The notes under the pieces were generated by a model, which was not told the origin of the DNA, ran no database searches, and saw only the letters and a list, made by a program, of their open reading frames with translations. Both the position numbers and the translations under genes were made by a program. Positions 8,559 through 51,409 of a stretch of 64,000 nucleotides of DNA are shown in pieces (position 1 is the first letter of the stretch; each line of letters starts with the position of its first letter). This DNA comes from Candidatus Woesearchaeota archaeon. GTDB lineage: Archaea > Nanobdellota > Nanobdellia > UBA10117 > JABICX01. The stretch covers positions 5,627-69,626 of the forward strand of contig JABHLG010000006.1 of the NCBI GenBank assembly GCA_018692915.1, in the 5' to 3' direction.

Positions 8559-8897
8559 ATGTTAGAACATGAATCTCTTGATAAACGAGTTGAACAATAT
8601 GAACAAAGAAGTATTGAACAAGTTGAGCAATATGAACAAACAAGTATTGCAAGTCATGAAGAAAATCAGCGTGATATTAAAGTAGCCGGTATCGAGACAA
8701 AAAGTAAGTTAGAAGCAATTGCAGATAATACAGGTGCTTGTGCAAAAGGTTTTAATTTAATGGAAAAGCAAACAGGACAATGGGCCGATTCTCAGCAAGA
8801 TATTAATAATTTATTAAAAACAGCTATTGCTGGCGGAGTTGTTATTTTAGGTATTGGATTATATGTTAATCTAAAATTATATGGAATTATTCCTTAA
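8559..8897 (+). CDS. Hypothetical protein with a C-terminal TM anchor
   Basis: 112-aa ORF. Contains the tandem peptide repeat VEQYEQ(R/T)SI. C-terminal hydrophobic helix [12 protein letters not shown]. Confidence 0.3.
8589..8654 (+). repeat. Tandem 33-nt repeat (2 copies) inside a CDS
   Basis: gttgaacaatatgaacaaagaagtattgaacaa followed by gttgagcaatatgaacaaacaagtattgcaagt. Confidence 0.8.
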
Positions 8898-9097: not shown

Positions 9098-9159
9098 AAA
9101 ACTTTTACAAAAGTTTCATCAAAAACTTGTTTGCTATGCAAACAAAGCCTTCGGCAAAA

Positions 9160-10697: not shown

Positions 10698-11231
10698 ATG
10701 TTTAAAACTCTATTTATGGCTAAACCTGATGATTACAATAAGACTGCGAAGATTTACAATAATCGTTATAGAGAAACTCAATTTGAGAAATATCGAATAA
10801 TGCTATCAGGTCTTAAACTAAATGGGCAAATTTTAGATCACGGTTGTGGCACAGGACTTTTAGGTGAATTTTTAGCTTCTTGGGGGAGCGAAGCGGGGGA
10901 AGTTGGTAAGAGGGCATGGCTCTTACATGGATGTGATAGTTCTAAAGAGATGCTTAAAATTCGAGGAGCTGGAGATTTGTGTAATGTAGAAAAATTGCCT
11001 TACAAAAACACAGAGTTTGACTTTGTGTTAAGTTTCTCTATGTTGATGAATTGTAAAAATCCTGAAAAAGTAATCAAAGAAATCAAGCGAGTTCTTAAGC
11101 TAAATGGAACTTTTGTATGTACTTTTCTAAAATCCTTTGAATCTAAATTAAAACCTCTTCTTGAAAAACATTTTAAAATTCAATTAGAAACAAATTGCGG
11201 AGAAGATGTAGGATTCTTGTTTAGACTCTAA
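10698..11231 (+). CDS. Class I SAM-dependent methyltransferase
   Basis: Motif I is ILDHGCGTGLL, with an acidic motif II region. Contains a GC-rich in-frame insertion (10878..10926). Confidence 0.75.
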   Translation: MFKTLFMAKPDDYNKTAKIYNNRYRETQFEKYRIMLSGLKLNGQILDHGCGTGLLGEFLASWGSEAGEVGKRAWLLHGCDSSKEMLKIRGAGDLCNVEKLPYKNTEFDFVLSFSMLMNCKNPEKVIKEIKRVLKLNGTFVCTFLKSFESKLKPLLEKHFKIQLETNCGEDVGFLFRL

Positions 11232-11259
11232 CAAATAACTTGAATCTATCTTTCTCTTC
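11221..11259 (-). pseudogene. Displaced duplicate of the last 13 codons (including stop) of the DUF655 gene
   Basis: Encodes EEKDRFKLFVRV*, identical to the functional end at 11355..11317. 7 of 39 nt differ and all are synonymous. It overlaps the methyltransferase stop convergently. Confidence 0.85.
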
Positions 11260-11316
11260 GAAACTTTTCAAAAAATTTTCACTAAAACGTCTAATTGTAA
11301 CAGAATACCGACAGAA
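11260..11316. repeat. Hairpin element, short form (family copy)
   Basis: gaaacttttcaaaaaattttc (compare gaaactttttcagaaaaagtttc at 51077) followed by aaaacgtct...cgacagaa (compare aaaacgttgct...cgcaacaataa). Abuts the DUF655 stop codon. Confidence 0.7.
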
Positions 11317-11871
11317 TTAAACACGAACAAACAGCTTGAATCTGTCTTTTTCTTCTAGCTCATCCATTATTCTTTGTATAACTAATTTCTTTGGGTTTGA
11401 GACAGAGCTAACTCTAGTTTTAATATCTTCAAAACTAACAAATGGTCGAACTTCTCTTTCTTCTAATAGCTCTTTTGCATGTCGCTTTCCAATGCCTGGA
11501 AGTAGCTCAAGAGTGTGTGCTCTAAGTGAGATTGGTCCAGAATAGTTAAAGAAATTAACAAATTTCTCTTCTCTTTTATCAACAAGACTTTCAATTATGA
11601 ATTTTAACTCGCTTTTAGCTGTCTGAGTTAGTTTTTCATTTGGTAGAATTCCTCTAATCCATGCAATCTGATCTCGTTCACCTTCACCAATGTAGACCTC
11701 ATCATGTGCTTTTAGAGCTATATCTGGTTTAGGAACTAATTCAAAAAGTGTAAAATGGTCACGACCTAGTGCCTGAACAACAGGTTCTTTCTGATGTAAT
11801 GGTCTAGAGTCCTCTGGATAGCCGTTCTTCAAAAAATCTAATACGATTGCATATTCTTCTTTCGCTCTCAT
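11317..11871 (-). CDS. DUF655 / COG1491 predicted RNA-binding protein
   Basis: MRAKEEYAIVLDFLKNGYP N-terminus and a C-terminal HhH-like region. Has the conserved archaeal neighbourhood with rpo4. Confidence 0.75.
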   Translation of the reverse strand: MRAKEEYAIVLDFLKNGYPEDSRPLHQKEPVVQALGRDHFTLFELVPKPDIALKAHDEVYIGEGERDQIAWIRGILPNEKLTQTAKSELKFIIESLVDKREEKFVNFFNYSGPISLRAHTLELLPGIGKRHAKELLEEREVRPFVSFEDIKTRVSSVSNPKKLVIQRIMDELEEKDRFKLFVRV

Positions 11872-12944: not shown

Positions 12945-14312
12945 TTACATTCCAGGTAGTTTCATACCACCGGGTAAGCCACCTTTGCCACCCATCATTT
13001 TAGCTAATTGCTTCATCTTTTGAGGGCTGCCCATTGACTTCATCATTTTCTGCATCTGCTTGTATTGCTTAAGTAATCCGCGCACTTCTTTTTCATCAGT
13101 GCCCGAGCCATTAGCGATTCTGTTGATTCTAGAAGCATTCATAACATCAGGATTTTCCTTTTCTGTTGGAGTCATAGATTGCATAATAAATTTCCATGTT
13201 TTCATTTTGCTTTCTTGACCTTTAAGCGCATCTTTTGGAACTGCTCCACCCATTCCAGGTATCATACCCATAATTTGTGAGAGCGGACCCATTTTTTGCA
13301 TTGCTTCCATTTGATCATATAAATCTTGAAGTGAAAGTCCTTGACCTTTTGTAACTTTCTTAGCTAATTTCTCAGCTTTATCTTTGTCAATTGCACCTTC
13401 TGCTTTTTTTAGAAGAGTTTCTAAATCTCCCATTCCAAGAATTCGAGATACAAAGTTCTTTGGCTTGAACTCTTCAATTGCATCCATTTTTTCTCCAACT
13501 CCAATAAACATAACTTTTGCTCCAGTAGTTGCGCAAGCTGTTAATGCACCTCCACCTTTTGCAGTTCCATCTAGTTTTGTAATTACAACACCTGTAACTC
13601 CAACGTTTTTGTGGAAAGATTCAGCTTGAGATTGTGCACCTTGACCAATGTCTCCAGAAAGAACTAGAAGTGCTTCATCAGGATTTACTGCTTTATTTAA
13701 CACCTTGATTTCATCTGTTAGCTCTTTGTTTAGAGAATCTCGTCCAGCTGTATCAATTATAACAACATCATATTTTTTGAATTCCTTTTCAAATTCTTTG
13801 ATTATATCTTCAGGTTTTTTAGCAGATGAATTTCCATAAAAATCAACTTTCATTGCTCTAGCTAGCTGCTGTAGCTGTGCATATGCAGCAGGTCGCCATG
13901 TGTCTGTTTGAACAACTGCAACTTTTTTACCTTGTTTTTTATAGTATCGTCCAAGTTTTCCTGCAGTTGTTGTCTTTCCAGACCCAAATAGACCAACTAG
14001 CATTATCTTAGTTGGCTTTTTCTTAAATTCAATCTCTTTGAACTCTTTTCCAAGGAAGTTAGTTAGTTCTTCAAAAACAATATTTACAACATGCTCGCGA
14101 GTTGTTAGACCTTTTGGAGGAGTTTCATTTGTTCCTCTGTCTCTGATTTTCTGAGCAATTTCTTTAGCTAAAGTAATATTAACATCAGCTGCTATCAATG
14201 CTTTTTTGATATCAGAAGATAATTCAATAACTGCTTTTTTATCAACTAGCCCTATATTAGTTATTTTCTTCAAACTTTCCTTTAGTCTATCTGATAATGA
14301 GTCTAATACCAT
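12945..14312 (-). CDS. srp54: Signal recognition particle protein SRP54
   Basis: N domain, G domain (GLFGSGKTTT, DTAGR, TKLDG) and a Met-rich M domain. Confidence 0.95.
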   Translation of the reverse strand: MVLDSLSDRLKESLKKITNIGLVDKKAVIELSSDIKKALIAADVNITLAKEIAQKIRDRGTNETPPKGLTTREHVVNIVFEELTNFLGKEFKEIEFKKKPTKIMLVGLFGSGKTTTAGKLGRYYKKQGKKVAVVQTDTWRPAAYAQLQQLARAMKVDFYGNSSAKKPEDIIKEFEKEFKKYDVVIIDTAGRDSLNKELTDEIKVLNKAVNPDEALLVLSGDIGQGAQSQAESFHKNVGVTGVVITKLDGTAKGGGALTACATTGAKVMFIGVGEKMDAIEEFKPKNFVSRILGMGDLETLLKKAEGAIDKDKAEKLAKKVTKGQGLSLQDLYDQMEAMQKMGPLSQIMGMIPGMGGAVPKDALKGQESKMKTWKFIMQSMTPTEKENPDVMNASRINRIANGSGTDEKEVRGLLKQYKQMQKMMKSMGSPQKMKQLAKMMGGKGGLPGGMKLPGM

Positions 14313-14329
14313 ACTTTTTAGCAGAAATG

Positions 14330-14350
14330 GAGGTTTTTAAGTGCTTTGAT
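14330..14350 (-). promoter_or_regulatory. Promoter block shared by srp54 and ftsY (TATA-like TTAAAAAC)
   Basis: gaggtttttaagtgctttgat begins 18 nt upstream of the srp54 ATG. 20 of 21 nt match 18928..18948, which sits at the same spacing from the ftsY ATG. Confidence 0.55.
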
Positions 14351-14406
14351 TAGAAGATTATAACCGTTAATCTTATAAACTAGTCATTACACAGTAGCAC
14401 TATAGT

Positions 14407-16410
14407 ATGACACTTTCAGAAGTAAAAAATTCGGTTCAAGAAACTATATTTCTTAAAGACCGTATCAAAACAAGTCTAGAAAAAATAATTAAGTTAAATA
14501 AAGAGATAGATCCTGGTGATGACGGATATAAACGATTTGTTAATGCTAAGTCTGATGATATAATGCCATATGTTCAATCTAACTGGACTGATCTTGATGA
14601 GGCTTCGCTGGTTAATGATAGTCAAGTGATTTTATTTGGAGATACCAATCATGCAAAAACAGGTAATATTGGCGGTATGGCAAAGTATATACCTCTTTTG
14701 AAGAAAGCAGGAATTACTGATGTAGCTATTGAGTTTCCAAGAGATGAGAAGAATCTCGAAGCAGTTACTCAGTTTAATGAGACTGGAGACTTGTCTCTGA
14801 TACGACCTATTGCAAATCAGACAAGAACACCTGTACGAATTGTTAGATTTTTTAGAAACGCACATCAAGAAGGAATGAATGTATCTTTAATAGATATGCC
14901 TGAAAAATCTCGGGATTCAAAATGGAGCACTACCCAACTTAACTATCAAAGAGGAATATATATGGGCCAAGTTCTTTCTGAGTTAGCTGAAGATTCTAAT
15001 GTTAAAATTGCGGCTTTTTGTGGTGCGGGACATTTTAGAGAAAAAGAAATACCGAAACAACTAACTGATGATAATATTGCATTTAAGAAATTTGCAGTTG
15101 TTACTCAAGGACAACCTATGTCGTTTATACTTCCAGATAATCAATATGAGATCGGCCCAGCAAATGCAGTAAATAGATGTGATTTATCTAATCGTAGTGG
15201 GTTTGTTGATTTAAATAATAATTACGATTTAGATGGATTTATATATTTTACAAAATCTAGTCTTATTGAGGATCAGAAATCTGCTAAATTAATTCTTGAT
15301 GATATTTCTAGTATTATCCCTTCTGTAGATGCACCAAAAGAAAACGCATTAGCACATTTAACTGGAAGCACAGCAATTCAAACAATTTCACAGCATTTTG
15401 GAAATCGTGTGGATCCATCATTATATACCTGGGAAGGCACAAATACTGAAAAGATTTATGATTTTGTAAATAATATTGACAGTCTAAATAATGGACAGAA
15501 ACTTCATCTATCAATTATGCTGGAGAATTATGTTCGTACTACTCTGCGTCATGGTGGAGGTTCTATACTTAGAATGGAATTTGATTCAGATGCAAACGCA
15601 TTTGGTATAGATACTATTGATACTTTTGGAAAGAAATTTGATGCAGAAGAGTATGCTGCTGCACGTGGAAAACACAGAGAAGTTACGTTAGATATGTTAC
15701 TTTCACAATATAATTTTGAAGACATAATGATTAAAGACGTAAGTCAAATACCTGAGACAGATATTTTACCTAATCCAGAAAATCTAGAAAGTGCACATAA
15801 GGTTATGATATTAATGTCTGCGTATGCGACGCACCCAGAACGGATTACGTGGGCAAATGATCGAAGTACACCTATGATTGGAGTTTATCGGGAAGGAAAT
15901 CATAATGATGATTATATTACTCGACTTGGTATTGAAGATTTTCTATTAACTGATATGGAGAGCAAGCTAGTTGATTTTGAAAAAAAGAATTCCGAGTACA
16001 CTCATAATATGGATAAGTTAAATACATTATTCTATTCATTTAGTAAAGATAAAGCTCTTTCTTTTAGTTATCGTAAAAAAGTGAAAAATTATAGCAGTGA
16101 GTTCATAGCCATATTTAGTGATATTATTTATGCAAGCAATAATGTAACGCGTAAGATAATTAATGCTCGATCTGAGCTACAGTATCTTAGTAACGATTCC
16201 GCAGAAACGCTGATTGAAAATGCTTATAACAAATTAGAAACATATAACGCAGTTATTAATAATGTGGCAGATGTTATGGATAAGAAAAATGTCTATCGAG
16301 GCAAATTTTTTGAAAATGATCTTGACTTTAAGCAGATTATTCAGGATAATCGCGAAATGGTTAAAGATTTAAGAAGTAATCTTAATGACATCAGAACATC
16401 GCTTAATTAA
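14407..16410 (+). CDS. Hypothetical 667-aa protein (cassette X1); N-terminal region has ChaN/Tiki-like motifs
   Basis: ILFGDTNHAKTG ... VAIEFPRDE ... AAFCGAGHFRE resemble the GExH / GxGH pattern of the ChaN (haem-binding uptake)/Tiki/erythromycin-esterase fold. The rest is orphan. Unverified. Confidence 0.45.
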   Translation: MTLSEVKNSVQETIFLKDRIKTSLEKIIKLNKEIDPGDDGYKRFVNAKSDDIMPYVQSNWTDLDEASLVNDSQVILFGDTNHAKTGNIGGMAKYIPLLKKAGITDVAIEFPRDEKNLEAVTQFNETGDLSLIRPIANQTRTPVRIVRFFRNAHQEGMNVSLIDMPEKSRDSKWSTTQLNYQRGIYMGQVLSELAEDSNVKIAAFCGAGHFREKEIPKQLTDDNIAFKKFAVVTQGQPMSFILPDNQYEIGPANAVNRCDLSNRSGFVDLNNNYDLDGFIYFTKSSLIEDQKSAKLILDDISSIIPSVDAPKENALAHLTGSTAIQTISQHFGNRVDPSLYTWEGTNTEKIYDFVNNIDSLNNGQKLHLSIMLENYVRTTLRHGGGSILRMEFDSDANAFGIDTIDTFGKKFDAEEYAAARGKHREVTLDMLLSQYNFEDIMIKDVSQIPETDILPNPENLESAHKVMILMSAYATHPERITWANDRSTPMIGVYREGNHNDDYITRLGIEDFLLTDMESKLVDFEKKNSEYTHNMDKLNTLFYSFSKDKALSFSYRKKVKNYSSEFIAIFSDIIYASNNVTRKIINARSELQYLSNDSAETLIENAYNKLETYNAVINNVADVMDKKNVYRGKFFENDLDFKQIIQDNREMVKDLRSNLNDIRTSLN

Positions 16411-16656
16411 TTAAAGCATTTTCTTTAATAATTTTTTAGGGTTAAATATTTCTAAATCTTTGTATTCTTGCCCTGTTCCACAGTCTCTAATTTTCTGAGC
16501 AATTTCTTTAGCTAAAGTAATATTAACATCAGCTGCTATCAATGCTTTTTTGATATCAGAAGATAATTCAATAACTGCTTTCTTATCAACTAGACCAATA
16601 TTTGTTATTTTCTTCAAACTTTCTTTTAGTCTGTCTGATAATGAGTCTAATACCAT
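16411..16656 (-). pseudogene. In-frame chimera: first 58 codons of srp54 fused to the last about 22 codons of ftsY
   Basis: 16484..16656 matches 14140..14312 (7 of 173 mismatches, all synonymous). 16411..16479 matches 17849..17917 (4 of 69 mismatches). The junction lies at a tgttcc microhomology. Confidence 0.85.
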
Positions 16657-16681
16657 TAAAATAAAGTAAATTTTAGTTTTA

Positions 16682-16700
16682 TAAAGAAGACGAATTGAAG
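16682..16700. repeat. 19-bp perfect direct repeat, copy 1
   Basis: taaagaagacgaattgaag, identical to 17423..17441. Confidence 0.8.
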
Positions 16701-16702
16701 TA

Positions 16703-16975
16703 TTAATGTAAATATTTCAATAGACCTTTTGCACTATTTAATAATGTATTAAATCTAAAATCTTTGAATTCATCAGATATTGAGTCACAATCATTAATTA
16801 ATTCTGTCAATTCAGATTTAGTATTTAGATCGTTGACTTTTTCTATGGCTGACGAATTAATTGTACCATCTTGATTTGTTCCATGTTCGATATAAGATAA
16901 GTTATATGTAGCGAAAGCTAATCTTCCATATATTTCTAAAACTTTTTTCACCTCATCAGATGAATATTTTTTCAT
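16703..16975 (-). CDS. Hypothetical protein (cassette X2)
   Basis: 90-aa ORF, no motif recognised. Confidence 0.3.
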   Translation of the reverse strand: MKKYSSDEVKKVLEIYGRLAFATYNLSYIEHGTNQDGTINSSAIEKVNDLNTKSELTELINDCDSISDEFKDFRFNTLLNSAKGLLKYLH

Positions 16976-17008
16976 TTAACTGTACTAAATAACACTTTTT
17001 AAAGTCTT

Positions 17009-17425
17009 TTGATGTGTGATTTTATGGGAATAGAAATTCTTATGAAAAATGATTTGGAAAAAGGTGCAGAGATTCTCGAATTTTTTATGAGAAAAAGATA
17101 TTCTGAAGAAATGGATTATGATGTTGATAGAGCTTCTTTTGCGAGTACATATATAATAATGGGTTTAAAACACTCAAAAAATGAAGAGTTAGTTGATAGA
17201 ACTAAAGAAATATTGCGTCGTATAATGAATAATTATATGTTTGATGTAGATAAAGATCAGAGTTATTTATATGAATTGACAACAGTATCAACATTTTACC
17301 GGATTCCAGAAACAACTAATTTTTTAGAAAAAATAAAACAAAGTAATGACTATATAAAATTGAATGATAATTTGAAAGATAGAGTTGAACGATGTGTTTT
17401 TACTTTCGAGCAAGAAAAAAATTAA
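17009..17425 (+). CDS. Hypothetical protein (cassette X2)
   Basis: 138-aa ORF, helical composition, no motif recognised. Confidence 0.3.
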   Translation: MMCDFMGIEILMKNDLEKGAEILEFFMRKRYSEEMDYDVDRASFASTYIIMGLKHSKNEELVDRTKEILRRIMNNYMFDVDKDQSYLYELTTVSTFYRIPETTNFLEKIKQSNDYIKLNDNLKDRVERCVFTFEQEKN

Positions 17426-17441
17426 AGAAGACGAATTGAAG
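17423..17441. repeat. 19-bp perfect direct repeat, copy 2
   Basis: taaagaagacgaattgaag, identical to 16682..16700. The pair brackets the two divergent ORFs 16703..17425. Confidence 0.8.
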
Positions 17442-17462
17442 ATATCGAACTGTTTTTAAAAT

Positions 17463-17852
17463 TTGCCACTGATATTTAATATGTCAGAAATTGTTGATAA
17501 TATTTGGGAAAAAACTCGCAAGATTGCGTTAGAATTAACTATTGAAGATGCTAAAGAGATTGCAAGTGCATTTAAGTTTTTTAATGAAGCAGTTGGTACT
17601 AAGCGAATTAATGATGGAGATTATTTCTTGCATACATTTCTTGCAAATGTAGCTCGTTATCAGACTAAATTTACTGATGCGGAAAAAGATTTCTTGCTAA
17701 ATGATGCTAAAACAGGTAGAGGTCAGACAGAAACAGTTATTTTATGTATATTGAATGAGAATAGTTCTAAACATTTAGAAACCTTGGAAGAAAAGAGAGC
17801 ATATCCAATATATAATGTATTTAGTGATGCGATTAATGCTGCATATCCTTAG
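17463..17852 (+). CDS. Hypothetical protein (cassette X2)
   Basis: 129-aa ORF (non-ATG start in the track). Its stop overlaps the ftsY stop convergently. Confidence 0.3.
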   Translation: MPLIFNMSEIVDNIWEKTRKIALELTIEDAKEIASAFKFFNEAVGTKRINDGDYFLHTFLANVARYQTKFTDAEKDFLLNDAKTGRGQTETVILCILNENSSKHLETLEEKRAYPIYNVFSDAINAAYP

Positions 17853-18910
17853 AGCATTTTCTTTAATAATTTTTTAGCATTAAATAGTTCTAAATCTTTG
17901 TATTCTTGCCCTGTTCCGATGAAAAGAATTGGTTTTCCAGTTTCATAGCCCGCAGAGATTATTGCTCCACCACGCTCATCTGCATCAGTTTTTGCTACAA
18001 TTGTTCCATCAATGTTAATCATCTGAGAAAAGTATCTTGCTTGCTCAACTGCATCGTTTCCAGTTAAAGCATCTACAACTAATATTGTGAAATCAGGATG
18101 AATTACTCTTTTGATTTTCTTAAGTTCGTTCATTAAATCTTCAGAAGCGTGCTGTCTTCCAGCAGTGTCAATCATTACAATATCCAAATTTTTTGCTTTT
18201 GCATGCTCCATTGCATCATAAGCAACAGCTGCAGGGTCTGCACCATATTTGTGCTTAACCATTTTGATTTTTAGATTGTCTGCATGATGTTGTAGCTGCT
18301 CAATTGCAGCAGCCCTGAATGTATCGCCCGCTGCAAATACAACAGATTTTTTATGGTCTTGGAAATATTTTCCCAATTTAGCTAAATTAGTTGTTTTTCC
18401 AACACCATTTACACCTACAAAAAGAATTGTTAATGGCTTCTTGTTCTTTGATTCTGCTAACAAATCAATTTGTTTGGGTTTTGTAAGAACTTCTGTTAAA
18501 ATTTCCTTAAGTTTTTCAGAAATAATTTCTGCACTTGGTTTTTGTTTGTTTTCTAAAAGCTCTCTTTTAACTTCTTCAAGAATTCTTTCAGTAATATCAT
18601 AAGCAATATTATTCTGAATTAATGCATCCCCAAAATCTTCAAGAGCAGATTCTATTTTATCTTCTGAGCGCTTTGCAAAGAAACCTTTTTTCTCTTCTGA
18701 AGGGCCTGTGCCCCCTTCGACCTCCCCCGACTTCTGCGAAGTCTCCTCCAAAGGTTTATCTTCTCGGTGAAATCTTGCTGCTATTCTTTCCTTGAGGCTC
18801 TTTTTTTCTTCCTCAACAGGTTTTTCTTCTTTAATTTCTTCCTTAGGTTCCTCTACTTCTTCAACATCTTTCTTAAATTTTGAAAACGCTTCTTTTAATC
18901 GACCGAACAT
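17849..18910 (-). CDS. ftsY: SRP receptor FtsY
   Basis: K/E-rich A domain, N domain and G domain (GVNGVGKTT, DTAGR, AKTDAD). Confidence 0.95.
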   Translation of the reverse strand: MFGRLKEAFSKFKKDVEEVEEPKEEIKEEKPVEEEKKSLKERIAARFHREDKPLEETSQKSGEVEGGTGPSEEKKGFFAKRSEDKIESALEDFGDALIQNNIAYDITERILEEVKRELLENKQKPSAEIISEKLKEILTEVLTKPKQIDLLAESKNKKPLTILFVGVNGVGKTTNLAKLGKYFQDHKKSVVFAAGDTFRAAAIEQLQHHADNLKIKMVKHKYGADPAAVAYDAMEHAKAKNLDIVMIDTAGRQHASEDLMNELKKIKRVIHPDFTILVVDALTGNDAVEQARYFSQMINIDGTIVAKTDADERGGAIISAGYETGKPILFIGTGQEYKDLELFNAKKLLKKML

Positions 18911-36841: not shown

Positions 36842-37252
36842 GTGAAACAAAAAGGTAGTGCAGCTGAGAGAGAATTAGTAGCAATGTTCTGGGGAACAGG
36901 TAACTGGAGCTCATTAAGAATTGCAGGAAGTGGAAGAATGAATTTTCCAAGTCCTGATGTTTTGGCAGGTAATGGTTCACAGATTTTTGCAATTGAAGTA
37001 AAAAGCACAAAACACAAGAGCCAATATATTGATGCAGATCAGATTCAGCAATTGAGAGACTTTGCAGAAAAGTTTGGAGCAACACCTTTGGTTGCAGTTA
37101 AGTTCTCAACAAAATGGCACTTTTGTAGCCCAGATGACATGAAGAAAACCACTTCTGGAAAGCACGTTCTACATAAAGAAAAGCATAAAGATATTGTAAA
37201 GCAGTTTGAAGAAGTTATTTCACGACGACCAGACCAAATAGCTGAGGAGTGA
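36842..37252 (+). CDS. hjc: Holliday junction resolvase Hjc (C-terminus remodelled by an insertion)
   Basis: GSAAERELV...GSG....PDVLA...IFAIEVKS (E...PD...ExK of Hjc), with a GTG start. The last 12 codons read into inserted sequence. Confidence 0.8.
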   Translation: MKQKGSAAERELVAMFWGTGNWSSLRIAGSGRMNFPSPDVLAGNGSQIFAIEVKSTKHKSQYIDADQIQQLRDFAEKFGATPLVAVKFSTKWHFCSPDDMKKTTSGKHVLHKEKHKDIVKQFEEVISRRPDQIAEE

Positions 37253-37288
37253 AGCGATGTGAACTGTCGCAGTCAGTTCACTGGAGAG
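37217..37288. repeat. 72-bp GC-richer insertion with an 8-bp-stem hairpin between duplicated hjc 3' segments
   Basis: Hairpin gtgaactg (37259..37266) / cagttcac (37274..37281). Supplies the current hjc stop TGA (37250..37252). Confidence 0.6.
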
Positions 37289-37354
37289 CAAGTGTTACAT
37301 AAAGAAAAACATGCTCATATAGTTAAACAATTTGAAGAAGTTCTAAATTTGTAA
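37289..37354 (+). pseudogene. Displaced copy of the hjc 3' end (22 codons including the native-looking stop)
   Basis: Encodes QVLHKEKHAHIVKQFEEVLNL*, against HVLHKEKHKDIVKQFEEV in the gene (37163..37216). 12 of 54 nt differ, 8 at third positions. Same reading frame as hjc. Confidence 0.8.
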
Positions 37355-47516: not shown

Positions 47517-47556
47517 GAATAATATTGTTTTTAACTTAGAGATTTATTATAGTATT

Positions 47557-47610
47557 ATGCAATACATATCTGATTTACATCTTCATAGCAGATTTTCTAG
47601 AGCTACATCC
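47557..47610 (+). pseudogene. Displaced duplicate of the first 18 codons (including ATG) of the PHP-domain gene
   Basis: Encodes MQYISDLHLHSRFSRATS, against MKYIADLHLHSRFSRATS at 47688..47741. 10 of 54 nt differ, 7 at third positions, giving 2 aa changes. Confidence 0.85.
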
Positions 47611-47687
47611 AAACTTTTTCAGAAAAAGTTTGACCAAAAACGCTGCTCATATATAATTTGTATTAAATCGCAGCAGGAGATATATGT
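47611..47687. repeat. Hairpin element, short form (family copy), abutting the ATG of the PHP gene
   Basis: aaactttttcagaaaaagttt (identical to 51078..51098) followed by aaaacgctgctcatatataatttgtattaaatcgcagcagg (compare 51155..51196). Confidence 0.8.
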
Positions 47688-48980
47688 ATGAAATATATTG
47701 CTGACTTGCACTTACATAGCAGATTTTCTAGAGCTACATCTAACAAGCTAGACCTACCTAATCTTGAGAAATATGGTAAGATAAAGGGACTTAATTTGCT
47801 TGGAACGGGAGATTTTATGCATCCACAATGGCAGAAAGAGCTAAAGTCTGAACTAACTACAGATGGTTCTGGAATTTACAAAACAAAGTCAAGATATCCT
47901 TTTGTTCTTTCAAATGAGATTTCTTTAATGTATCGTCAGGGCGATAAAGGTCGTAGAGCACACGTTGTTCTTCTTGCGCCAAATATGGATGTTGTGGACC
48001 AAATTACAGATTACTTCAAAAAATTTGGTAGAGTTGATTATGATGGTCGACCAATATTCGGTAAGAGTATAATTGAAGTTACAGAAGGGCTAAATAATAT
48101 ATCTAATGATATTGAAATAATACCTGCACACATATGGACACCTTGGTTTGGTTTGCTTGGTTCAAAATCAGGTTTTGATTCATTTAAAGAAGCACTTGGT
48201 GACCAAATAAAGCATATTCATTCATTTGAAACAGGACTTAGTTCTGACCCTGAGATGAATTGGCGAGTTTCTGAACTAGATAAATTTACAGCTCTGTCTT
48301 TTTCAGATGCACATAGCCATTGGCCTTGGAGAATTGGTAGGGAAGCAACTTTGTTTGACTTGAAAAATCTAACTTACAAAGATTTAATTAACGCAATTCG
48401 AACACGAGACGGCTATGAAGGAACAATTGAAGTTGACCCTGGTTATGGACGGTATCATCATGATGGACACAGAAATTGTGGAGTTAGTTTCATTCCACAG
48501 ATTTCTAAAAAGTATAATGATATTTGCCCAGTTTGTAAAAAGCCACTTACAATTGGAGTTATGTATCGAGTTGAAGAATTAGCAGATAGGCCAGAAGGAT
48601 ATACACCAAAAAATGCAGCAAAAGTATACAAATTACTACCTTTATCTGATTTGATTTCTGGAGTAGTTGGAACAGGAGTAGCAACGCAAAAGGTTTGGGA
48701 AATTTTCAACAAACTAATTGATAATTTTGGTTCAGAATACAATGTTCTTCTAAATGTTTCTGCAGATGATTTGCAAAAAGTTGTGGATGAAAATATAGTT
48801 CAGTTTATCTTAAAGAATCGTGCAGGTCAGATTGAAGTTAAGCCAGGTTATGATGGTGTTTATGGCGAAGCAATCTTTGGAGAGAAACCACAACCTAAAC
48901 CATTTGTATCTGAACGCCCGGCTAGTATGGAACAACAAAAACAAATAGAAAAACCCCAAAAGAGTTTAACTGATTTCTAA
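47688..48980 (+). CDS. PHP-domain phosphoesterase with an internal zinc ribbon (COG1379-like)
   Basis: ADLHLHSRFSRATS (PHP motif I), HIWTPW, FSDAHS, CPVCKKPLT. The architecture matches the archaeal COG1379 family. Confidence 0.7.
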   Translation: MKYIADLHLHSRFSRATSNKLDLPNLEKYGKIKGLNLLGTGDFMHPQWQKELKSELTTDGSGIYKTKSRYPFVLSNEISLMYRQGDKGRRAHVVLLAPNMDVVDQITDYFKKFGRVDYDGRPIFGKSIIEVTEGLNNISNDIEIIPAHIWTPWFGLLGSKSGFDSFKEALGDQIKHIHSFETGLSSDPEMNWRVSELDKFTALSFSDAHSHWPWRIGREATLFDLKNLTYKDLINAIRTRDGYEGTIEVDPGYGRYHHDGHRNCGVSFIPQISKKYNDICPVCKKPLTIGVMYRVEELADRPEGYTPKNAAKVYKLLPLSDLISGVVGTGVATQKVWEIFNKLIDNFGSEYNVLLNVSADDLQKVVDENIVQFILKNRAGQIEVKPGYDGVYGEAIFGEKPQPKPFVSERPASMEQQKQIEKPQKSLTDF

Positions 48981-51003: not shown

Positions 51004-51038
51004 AATAAATTCTAAAATAACAGCTTTATAAAACTTCT

Positions 51039-51077
51039 TAGTTCAAGACTTCAGTAACCTTAGCTTTTATGTCTGCG
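51039..51077 (-). pseudogene. Displaced duplicate of the last 13 codons (including stop) of rps27e
   Basis: Encodes ADIKAKVTEVLN*, against ADIKSKVTEVLN* at 51235..51197. 5 of 39 nt differ, 4 of them synonymous third-position changes. Confidence 0.85.
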
Positions 51078-51196
51078 AAACTTTTTCAGAAAAAGTTTCA
51101 TCACCAAGCTGAACTTTGTTCAGCGAGGCCAAGAAAATCAAAGATTTTCTCTGGAAAACGTTGCTCATATGTGTTGGTGTTCAATCGCAACAATAA
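51078..51196. repeat. Hairpin element, long (composite) form, abutting the rps27e stop codon
   Basis: Left hairpin at 51078..51098. Inner two-hairpin module catcaccaagc-tgaactttgttca-gcgaggccaagaaaatcaaagattttctctgg at 51099..51154. Right arm at 51155..51196. Confidence 0.8.
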
Positions 51197-51409
51197 TTAA
51201 TTTAATACTTCAGTAACCTTAGATTTTATATCTGCTTTTCCGCCTTTTGATTTAGCTAAAAGTTCATCACAAACAAGGCATTTTACATCGCTTGCAGCTT
51301 TTTCGAAAATAATTTGAATATTTTTACATTTAGCACATTTTACTTTTATAAAACTTGAACTTGGACCTTTATCTTTTACCATTTTAGTTGTTCTCCTTTT
51401 GTTTTGCAA
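51197..51409 (-). CDS. rps27e: Ribosomal protein S27e
   Basis: Zinc ribbon VKCAKCKN...VKCLVCDE. The true start may be the internal MVKDKG. Confidence 0.85.
   Translation of the reverse strand: MQNKRRTTKMVKDKGPSSSFIKVKCAKCKNIQIIFEKAASDVKCLVCDELLAKSKGGKADIKSKVTEVLN

Follow-up and report, generated by a model that had tools for sequence, protein, structure and literature searches.

In a 64,000-nt stretch of the genome of a Candidatus Woesearchaeota archaeon (contig JABHLG010000006.1 of GenBank assembly GCA_018692915.1, positions 5,627 to 69,626 of the forward strand; hereafter the window), the 3' end of a gene encoding a DUF655 protein is present twice, with 57 bp of non-coding DNA between the two copies. 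We propose that this 57-bp spacer is a miniature, protein-less insertion element that carries a diverged version of its target's terminus and that entered by one crossover within a short identical core, a reading to which we assign a probability of about 0.45. It draws on the anatomy of the junction, the constant polarity of the layout, the finding of this layout again at further genes and species, the hybrid make-up of the duplicated sequences at the Hjc gene, a native displaced copy at two loci, and the rejection of neutral decay as the source of the differences between copies.

The duplicated DUF655 gene end and its element family

The DUF655 gene and a convergent methyltransferase gene meet at a junction composed of the following features.

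10698..11231, plus strand: class I methyltransferase gene, convergent (open reading frame (ORF) list; Pfam methyltransferase families on public contigs)
11221..11259, minus strand: displaced copy (D) of the DUF655 end, with intact frame and stop, also encoding EEKDRFKLFVRV* (sequence read; compared with the displaced copy in a related lineage, L013)
11260..11316, plus strand: 57-bp non-coding element, a short degenerate form (alignment with other copies; covariance model)
11317..11355, minus strand: functional copy (F), the final 12 codons and stop of DUF655, EEKDRFKLFVRV* (sequence read)
11317..11871, minus strand: DUF655 (PF04919) gene, 184 aa (ORF list; PF04919 called on public contigs; homologues in DPANN or Woesearchaeota)

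The codons of F (11355..11317: gaa gaa aaa gac aga ttc aag ctg ttt gtt cgt gtt taa) and of D (11259..11221: gaa gag aaa gat aga ttc aag tta ttt gtt aga gtc taa) differ at 7 of 39 nt, in five codons, without a single amino-acid change, and self-BLAST recovers the pair with E=0.002. The hairpin of the element, GAAACTTTTC-AAAAAATTTTC (11260-11280), adjoins D; ACTAAAACGTCT... comes next, and the element reaches the stop codon of F with its right end, ...CGACAGAA. The fold computed for the hairpin as RNA is weak (z=+1.35). The element matches the covariance model described below at 57.4 bits (E=4e-8), a score obtained with this copy in the training set.

The first-pass annotation, made from the sequence alone, had already described this duplication, and its coordinates, codons and count of seven purely synonymous differences all stood when the sequence was re-read and translated. 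It had also proposed validating positions 11200..11370 at the level of reads; in public assemblies, which we used in place of reads, a 176-nt stretch of the junction shows no base differences in 10 independently assembled contigs from different samples, assemblers and archives (megahit, SPAdes, JGI, NCBI, Logan and ENA assemblies, including GCA_018646145.1; overall identity to the window 98.5-100%). The presence of the same structure in 10 independent assemblies indicates that it is not an assembly artefact.

The methyltransferase gene ends inside D, in an 11-nt overlap that corresponds to the last 11 nt of D (final codons and stop). Its stop codon at 11229-11231 is TAA in the window and GAA in L013 (aga versus cga on the DUF655 strand), and the old tail codons CAA ATA ACT TGA can still be read past it; judged from this comparison, the stop looks like a recent gain that left the protein four residues shorter.

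The spacer belongs to a family of inserts, here called P1, whose members at DUF655, rps27e, a PHP-like gene, the S24e/S27ae boundary and the DUF655 gene of L013 align with one another over the hairpin and over SAYCA and AAAAYGCTNCT segments. When a covariance model was made from these inserts and run over the window, it recovered exactly four copies, each on the plus strand. The three others are as follows.

9098..9159, plus strand: P1 copy, 62 bp, separating the stop of S24e from the start of S27ae; no duplication retained (alignment; covariance model)
47610..47686, plus strand: P1 copy, ~75 bp, upstream of the PHP-like gene (47688..48980), at its 5' end (alignment; covariance model)
51077..51196, plus strand: P1 long form, 120 bp, downstream of rps27e (alignment; covariance model; fold z=-3.9)

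The hairpin consensus is SAAACTTTT-loop-AAAAGTTTS, followed by ATCAAAAA. In every P1 copy that has a duplication, the order on the plus strand is D, hairpin, rest of the element, F, whichever gene strand or gene end is involved: within the window this holds for the minus-strand 3' ends of DUF655 and rps27e and for the plus-strand 5' end of the PHP-like gene. Since the polarity is the same for either gene strand and either gene end, it points to an event at the level of DNA and not to a feature of the transcript. The right end of the element lies directly against a stop codon at DUF655, rps27e, S24e and in L013. The earlier descriptions of the spacer as a short form of the rps27e element, in the same orientation and abutting the functional stop, were thus borne out, as was the argument against random rearrangement; the layout recurs at other genes.

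At rps27e, F (51197-51235) and D (51038-51076) are 39 nt long and differ at five positions, one of them causing an S/A change. The long-form element there combines the P1 hairpin with two more hairpins and a 5-bp long-range stem, and D keeps its native spacing and TATA-like context upstream of eIF2-alpha. At the PHP-like gene, ~56 nt are duplicated (D, 47556-47612; F, 47687-47743), and the right end of the element carries a TATA-like ATATATAA, GGAG and ATG context. The PHP-like D also keeps its own upstream region and start codon, from which a 32-codon dead-end ORF, MQYISDLHLHSRFSRATSNFFRKSLTKNAAHI* (47557-47655), opens into the element. Duplicated lengths across the family are therefore 39, 39, ~56, 26 (L013) and 0 nt (S24e/S27ae). 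The identical 39-nt length at DUF655 and rps27e had been taken to argue for a defined mechanism, but a fixed 39-nt ruler is rejected on this range, and the coinciding length of two cases gives no indication of a measuring mechanism.

Two observations concern the distribution of the copies along the window. The one-strand orientation (9098-9159, 11260-11316, 47610-47686, 51077-51196) is not significant with n=4; a bias of strand or of replication in the way the elements insert may lie behind it. The copy at S24e/S27ae is polymorphic: a strain that is 98.5% identical upstream (L007, positions 2848-2937) has no element and retains an overlapping ATAATG stop/start, the ancestral arrangement, together with a low-complexity S24e tail that differs from that of the window. 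S27ae is ~95% identical between the two and the genes beyond it differ, so that positions 9098-9159 do not provide a clean before-and-after picture; since the strain differs on both sides, the element lies at the edge of a strain-variable tract.

Among six related lineages, an element at DUF655 is present in the species of the window and in L013 only. The L013 gene has a related 60-bp element and a 26-nt D that differs from F at seven positions, all synonymous. Elsewhere the junction holds a 94-nt unrelated spacer (L339), a gene of 113 aa (L011) or other genes (L015, L338 and P0002), and L011 retains an 11-nt remnant of D at the methyltransferase stop; the DUF655-methyltransferase junction is a hotspot. 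Across other DPANN loci amounting to ~700 kb, no gene-end duplication with the P1 layout was found beyond that of L013 (what looked like one in L179 proved to be a tandem protein repeat), and in ~530 kb of these loci the covariance model matched only the same species, L013 and a tRNA intron in L152.

The window has a GC content of 32%, contains ribosomal-protein, Rpo, SRP and eIF2 genes among others, and gave no tRNA or Rfam match over its 64 kb. Judged by its DUF655 homologues and the names of their sources, it belongs with the DPANN archaea (Woesearchaeota or Nanoarchaeota-like). A 112-aa plus-strand ORF contains an 11-residue repeat that corresponds to a 33-nt tandem duplication at 8584-8649, in register and 91% identical.

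Origin of the functional and displaced copies

When seven random substitutions were placed in one DUF655 copy, the peptide remained unchanged in 0 of 20,000 simulations. We also modelled neutral decay from an identical start, with F under purifying selection and D free to decay, and obtained P values of 0.0006 (DUF655), <0.0002 (the L013 gene), 0.006 (PHP-like) and 0.08 (rps27e); the simulation thus rejects an identical target duplication with later neutral decay (P=0.0006 at DUF655). At third codon positions the DUF655 F and D are identical in 8 of 13 cases, and the between-species value in the clade, which comprises six near-equidistant species, is 0.50-0.67. Species of this clade are found together in single samples (e.g., ERZ27250245). 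As far as sequences go, this degree of third-position divergence, together with the co-occurrence, fits copies that would already have been diverged orthologues when they were joined.

The PHP-like gene bears on which copy is native. Its D encodes MQYIS... and has Q2, S5 and its upstream context in common with the nearest relative (L138, 77% aa identity), and its F encodes MKYIA..., with K2 and A5, the residues that distant homologues commonly have. F and D share a 26-nt identical core, and all differences but one lie on its far side.

The Hjc gene has the same layout around an element of a different, GC-richer family.

37217..37280, minus strand: Hjc element, 64 bp, unrelated to P1, same layout (self-comparison; orthologue comparison)

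Here 62-74 nt are duplicated (F, 37155-37216; D, 37281-37354; whole layout, 37155-37354). The element codes for a new 11-residue tail, ISRRPDQIAEE*, and then forms a hairpin, TGAACTG..CAGTTCA, that adjoins D, so that the protein has 136 aa in the window versus 130 aa in relatives (87% identity), whose C-terminus reads ...KEKHLHITKQFEE(I/L)L(E/D)(Q/S)LD. The window D is deviant beside the hairpin (GEQ versus GKH in all orthologues) and ortholog-like distally (AH), and F shows the reverse, following the orthologues beside the gene body (GKH) and departing from them distally (KD...ISRRPDQIAEE). The ortholog-like and deviant regions are separated by an identical core of 13 nt, TACATAAAGAAAA. Deviant and ortholog-like arms mirrored around TACATAAAGAAAA are the pattern expected from one crossover within the core, and the Hjc locus gives the single-crossover reading its clearest support. 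A second species (L350, positions 1813-2000; Hjc 88% aa identity) has the same 64-nt insert, ~78% identical by count, with the same stem and a different loop. Its duplicated length is 60 nt, its D begins 18 nt later than that of the window, and its displaced copy, KEKHLHITKQFEELLESLD*, is identical at 19 of 20 residues to the functional C-terminus of P0123. Because the junctions and the species-typical ends of D differ between the two, separate and fairly recent insertions of related elements are favoured and a single old scar is less likely.

Taken at the level of sequence comparison, the PHP-like and Hjc loci fit a native D and an F that would have been brought in. D and F are nevertheless probably each hybrids, split at a crossover in the identical core, and not wholly native or wholly imported. 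The suggestion of the first-pass annotation that D at DUF655 is the original genomic context consequently holds in part: D is joined to the native flank and overlaps the methyltransferase stop, but the hybrid nature of both copies would make neither of them purely one or the other.

Integration in the manner of a Campbell or attachment-site (att)-type event would account for this arrangement. A single crossover inside the core of the terminus would let the gene body run into the element-borne end, F, and its stop; the non-coding part of the element would follow, ending in the stable hairpin, and the resident end, D, would be pushed beyond the hairpin while still joined to its native downstream DNA, each copy being a hybrid split at the crossover. 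Because both copies would derive from functional orthologous sequence, the differences between them would be mostly synonymous from the moment of insertion. At DUF655, D would additionally be retained because it still codes for the tail of the convergent methyltransferase. We infer from the combined loci that the topology is that of a single crossover, that the intermediate was ~60-160 nt long and was a small circle or mobile in some other form, and that the origin was horizontal, from related co-occurring species. There are weak signs of a single-stranded (HUH or IS200-like) or RNA-derived route in the structural conservation of the hairpin, the one-strand bias (4/4) and the link with tRNA introns described below. 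The P1 hairpin presents a T5 run in either direction, and archaeal polymerases stop at T runs; as its sequence suggests, the hairpin may limit read-through, and one copy (at the PHP-like gene) may bring promoter-like signals.

Several results weigh against the proposed insertion. No integrase, transposase or Cas1 was found near any copy (Pfam, 10 ORFs around the window elements), no protein recurs near the motif among the 120 loci listed, and no free or "empty-donor" form of the element was seen. Circles of double-stranded DNA are physically implausible at 60-160 bp, which would leave an intermediate that is single-stranded, RNA-derived or non-circular. The best hybrid evidence comes from Hjc, where the element belongs to a different family from P1. 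At DUF655, F and D differ in such a way that the identical core is only 9 nt long, and host-derived halves are not assignable there. No imported tract is detectable in the bodies of the DUF655 or PHP-like genes with the available relatives, because synonymous sites are near saturation between them (a block of 97% identity between the window and L011, considered as a recombination tract, proved to be a segment conserved in all lineages). Finally, the methyltransferase overlap alone can explain the synonymous-only pattern at DUF655.

This last point is the basis of the first alternative, in which an insertion, by whatever mechanism yields a long target duplication, fell in the DUF655/methyltransferase overlap and duplicated the sequence in place, F then drifting synonymously and D being frozen by the methyltransferase frame, with no foreign copy involved. 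The third codon positions of DUF655 are the second codon positions of the opposite-strand methyltransferase tail, and the L013 methyltransferase reads 23 nt into the 26-nt D (...RLEQIA*). Alignment of DUF655 3' ends from related genomes had been proposed as a way to tell the native from the imported copy, and comparison with L013 gave an asymmetry, the two D copies being identical at 24 of 26 nt, including all eight third positions, versus 20 of 26 for the two F copies; the asymmetry is, however, confounded by the overlap, and since the methyltransferase frame holds D while F drifts synonymously, the DUF655 pattern is not clean evidence of import. The seemingly recent methyltransferase stop, the 11-nt remnant of D in L011, and a divergence between the window and L013 elements that is about that of neutral DNA also agree with duplication in place. 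The ancestral state was thus a convergent overlap, in which an insertion could survive only with the overlap duplicated, after which one gene constrained each copy.

We nevertheless consider duplication in place unlikely. It fails at rps27e, the PHP-like gene and Hjc, where no gene overlaps D and yet its frame is intact and its residues are ortholog-like. At DUF655 itself, 13 nt of the window D that lie outside any ORF differ from F at two third positions only. D is 39 nt long in the window versus 26 nt in L013, and the two species are not sisters among six near-equidistant lineages, four of which are without the structure. Duplication in place would also call for identical target duplications of variable length, from 26 to ~56 nt, and we know of no mechanism that makes them. 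At the DUF655 locus, the only one where duplication in place is viable, the two histories, born diverged and diverged in place, are not separable; the other loci favour copies that were born diverged.

The hairpin motif beyond the window

We scanned one genome per prokaryotic species with the pattern AAACTTTTN{1,16}AAAAGTTTSAYCAMMAA, and at least 120 stretches of DNA matched, against a chance expectation that we estimate at a few. Those listed come from Methanosarcinales, other Methanobacteriota, Methanocaldococcus, Micrarchaeota, Woesearchaeota, Nanoarchaeia and Nanohalarchaeota, and, among bacteria, from Clostridia, Cloacimonadota and one bacterium of the candidate phyla radiation (CPR). The pattern left the base before AAAC unconstrained, and among the matches listed it forms a complementary pair with the one that follows GTTT in 125 of 131 distinct instances (C-G in 104, G-C in 21), indicating that the hairpin is kept by compensatory change, that is, by selection on its structure. 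The bases that follow the hairpin in these 131 instances are ATCAAAAA in 118 and ACCAAAAA in 13. A plain AT hairpin is not diagnostic: such hairpins are common in giant-virus contigs, in which the full motif with ATCAAAAA occurs about once in 214 of them.

At the gathering score, Rfam reports only tRNAs in 15 motif loci, and around the rps27e copy it gives sub-threshold noise. No protein family recurs within 2.5 kb of the motif among the 120 loci listed, around which the side of the hairpin faces gene 3' ends slightly more often than 5' ends. Neither the motif nor the layout was found described in the literature when it was searched by sequence and by keyword, the single sequence match being an unrelated primer.

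tRNA genes show the same layout as the protein genes of the window. Partial duplications of tRNA ends lie on the two sides of the motif, with the P1 polarity, at 3' ends in L219 (Methanocaldococcus), L223 and L310 and at the 5' end of a tRNA-Ala gene in the rRNA spacer of L322; L239 is a further candidate, flagged by the scan only. In the first four, the distal 14-21 nt of the copies are identical and mismatches cluster in the 8-13 nt beside the hairpin, as expected for hybrids that are host-derived distally and element-derived proximally. In one tRNA case the copies lie ~32 nt apart. The motif also stands directly after tRNA 3' ends in L242 and L317.

Several other settings of the motif were seen. 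tRNA introns of several DPANN and Micrarchaeota genomes start with the P1 hairpin, in the anticodon loop (L308, L222, L305) or the D-loop (L259), and in L152 a stem variant with compensating changes (CAAGCTTTTT..AAAAAGCTTG AGC AAAAAAA) opens a ~220-nt T-loop intron; in two organisms the motif-bearing intron of tRNA-Thr(GGU) sits at different sites. Perfect tandem arrays that contain the motif, with repeat periods of 83 and 64 nt, are found in Methanosarcina and other Methanosarcinales, and in Ruminococcus it is one module of a ~230-bp multi-hairpin repeat with several copies per genome (tandem or multi-hairpin loci: L245, 3920-4281; L299, 1-156; L227; L253). BLAST gave no match that would point to a plasmid or phage origin of the bacterial composite repeat.

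Comparison with known systems and further alternatives

The P1 layout resembles the att duplications left by integrative elements directed at the 3' ends of tRNA or protein genes, such as archaeal SSV-type and pNOB8-type elements and bacterial tRNA/tmRNA islands. In both, direct repeats of a gene terminus lie on the two sides of an insert, the insert supplies the gene end while the displaced native end stays on the native flank, and a short identical core is bordered by diverged arms (at Hjc and the tRNA loci). Terminus repeats with the gene restored by an insert-borne copy are found at DUF655, in L013, at the tRNA loci and at Hjc; hybrid arms are clear at Hjc, the PHP-like and tRNA loci are compatible with them, and the DUF655 core is just 9 nt. 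The P1 inserts differ from integrative elements in being 32-120 bp long, non-coding and without an integrase, in targeting 5' ends and unrelated housekeeping protein genes, and in having a conserved hairpin that always adjoins D. No recombinase lies in or beside the element (57-bp insert; Pfam on 10 neighbouring ORFs; 120 motif loci listed). The layout stands apart in its miniaturisation, in its use of protein-gene ends at both termini, and in a cross-domain hairpin not previously described in the resources searched.

Given this resemblance, the structures might be scars of large integrative elements (proviruses, or plasmids with an integrase) whose interior was deleted, leaving attL, a remnant and attR. 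Integrative elements of archaea and bacteria are classically recognised by an insert with a gene terminus or tRNA end duplicated around it, tRNA genes show the same layout, and the FtsY-SRP54 interval of the window, described below, has kilobase inserts between 69-nt and 183-nt duplications. Independent deletions should, however, leave unrelated remnants, yet the same hairpin always adjoins D, the Hjc element is 64 nt in both species, and in one tRNA case only ~32 nt remain between the copies. No integrase fragment was found, nor any full-length relative near the motif (120 loci listed). We regard scars of this kind as quite unlikely.

Known small elements share individual features with P1. 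PATEs and other terminal-only IS200/IS605 derivatives reach down to 52 bp in Haloquadratum (PMC3119063). Like P1 they are protein-less, tens of bp long, equipped with near-terminal palindromes and present in archaea and bacteria, and the copies in the window lie on one strand. The P1 hairpin is followed by TTGAT/TTCAT-like bases; TTGAT is the target of ISDra2. IS200/IS605 elements make no target duplication and carry no host gene ends, in contrast to the flanking duplications of P1, whose hairpin stands right at the boundary and whose other end has only a weak 5-bp stem. The bases 5' of that other end (TTAA, TTAA, TTAG, ATAG, CATA) form a loose motif only.

Casposons and CRISPR Cas1 likewise insert at the 3' ends of tRNA and protein genes with a target duplication longer than those of classical transposons, but the copies that they produce start out identical and have a set size (14-15 bp, or that of the repeat). 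Integration by this route was rejected for P1, where lengths run from 0 to ~56 nt, the copies differ by 13-27%, like orthologues, and neutral decay is excluded; neither terminal inverted repeats in the P1 elements nor Cas1 near the copies was seen. A miniature inverted-repeat transposable element (MITE) was rejected because the sole palindrome is the hairpin at one end, the two ends are unrelated, and the duplications are diverged and 0 to ~56 nt long. A diversity-generating retroelement was rejected because the substitutions mix transitions and transversions in both directions and are not confined to adenine; no reverse transcriptase was seen among the ORFs. Homology-facilitated illegitimate recombination, or donor copying halted at the hairpin, shares with P1 one side anchored in a homologous gene and the other joined non-homologously, but it does not predict one element at unrelated genes or a junction always at the foot of the hairpin. 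Correia, REP/BIME, ERIC and RPE sequences are also short structured repeats at gene boundaries, where P1 has TATA-like and Shine-Dalgarno-like signals (one copy) and a T5 run; they have inverted termini or species-specific palindromes and no duplication of gene termini, whereas the P1 motif is cross-domain.

A different kind of explanation would have both copies expressed, the element and one repeat unit being removed from the RNA, for instance as a bulge-helix-bulge intron, or bypassed by the ribosome, so that D would be a true exon maintained by purifying selection. The motif does open tRNA introns in several DPANN lineages, at varying tRNA positions, and between species D is better conserved than F at DUF655 and Hjc. 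On the DUF655 mRNA strand a bulge-helix-bulge-like fold with helices of 7/4/7 bp has a spacing of exactly 96 nt; this pairing between F and D (11243-11339, minus strand) has TCA bulges, and removal of 96 nt keeps the frame, but it is probably due to chance. It is rich in G-U pairs and arises from one repeated quasi-palindrome (chance ~0.01-0.02, by our estimate), its central helix is lost in L013, and no fold with the right spacing is present at rps27e, the PHP-like gene or Hjc. The orientation of the element relative to transcription is moreover opposite at 3' and 5' ends, and splicing is not needed to obtain a complete protein. We consider expression of both copies very unlikely.

Less credible still is a guide with a recoded rescue, in which the element and D would form a scaffold-guide RNA directed against element-free alleles and F would be an immune synonymous copy. 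The layout does present a multi-hairpin scaffold with a terminal hairpin followed by 26-56 nt that match the native allele, and D is conserved at the nucleotide level while F varies at synonymous sites, but the conservation of D has simpler explanations. No nuclease gene was found (Pfam on 10 ORFs; 120 motif loci listed), no consistent motif was seen beside the would-be targets when the sequences were read directly, and at tRNA loci the hairpin-proximal part of D, where the seed would sit, is the diverged part. An artefact of assembly or strain mixing has a negligible probability: the window is metagenome-derived and related species occur together in samples, but this is ruled out by the identity of the DUF655 structure in 10 contigs and by the rps27e and PHP-like structures, which are fixed in 10 more.

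The FtsY-SRP54 interval (14130-17917) contains two kilobase inserts. The first 183 nt of SRP54 (14130-14312) occur again at 16474-16656 with 95% identity, the last 69 nt of FtsY (17849-17917) occur again at 16411-16479 with 94% identity, and these displaced pieces, overlapping by 6 nt, together make up a chimeric ORF of 81 aa (16411..16656, minus strand). The arrangement resembles two alternative alleles of an island set in tandem by one crossover of a circularised fragment. Its junctions are without the P1 hairpin, none of the insert ORFs (667, 138, 129 and 90 aa) matches a Pfam family, and in relatives FtsY and SRP54 are adjacent or separated by other inserts.

If an insertion by single crossover is what produced the P1 layout, essential genes of reduced DPANN genomes are invaded by non-coding insertions that are harmless because each brings its own copy of the gene end, a minimal version of the strategy of large integrating viruses and islands, with an integration route for which the genes near the elements do not account. 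A broader reading, which is doubtful at present, is that P1 represents a new class of protein-less, gene-specific "terminus-replacement" elements in DPANN, 60-160-nt units composed of a diverged gene or tRNA end and a hairpin module. Such a unit would hold the first or last 9-25 codons of a housekeeping gene, or a tRNA end, and would spread horizontally among co-occurring DPANN species by a putative host-supplied activity, possibly as a single-stranded or RNA-derived circle. The SAAACTTTT-loop-AAAAGTTTS-ATCAAAAA module, near-unchanged across archaeal phyla and Clostridia, would then link intron gain, tRNA-end duplication and gene-end replacement.

The single-crossover reading would also explain why archaeal genomes assembled from metagenomes contain gene ends in duplicate and short ORFs that lead nowhere; in annotation the second copy is to be treated neither as a gene fragment nor as an assembly error. 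On this reading P1 insertions would mark sites of recombination between species, and the finding exposes for functional testing a cross-domain hairpin motif of 28-30 nt that is not in Rfam.

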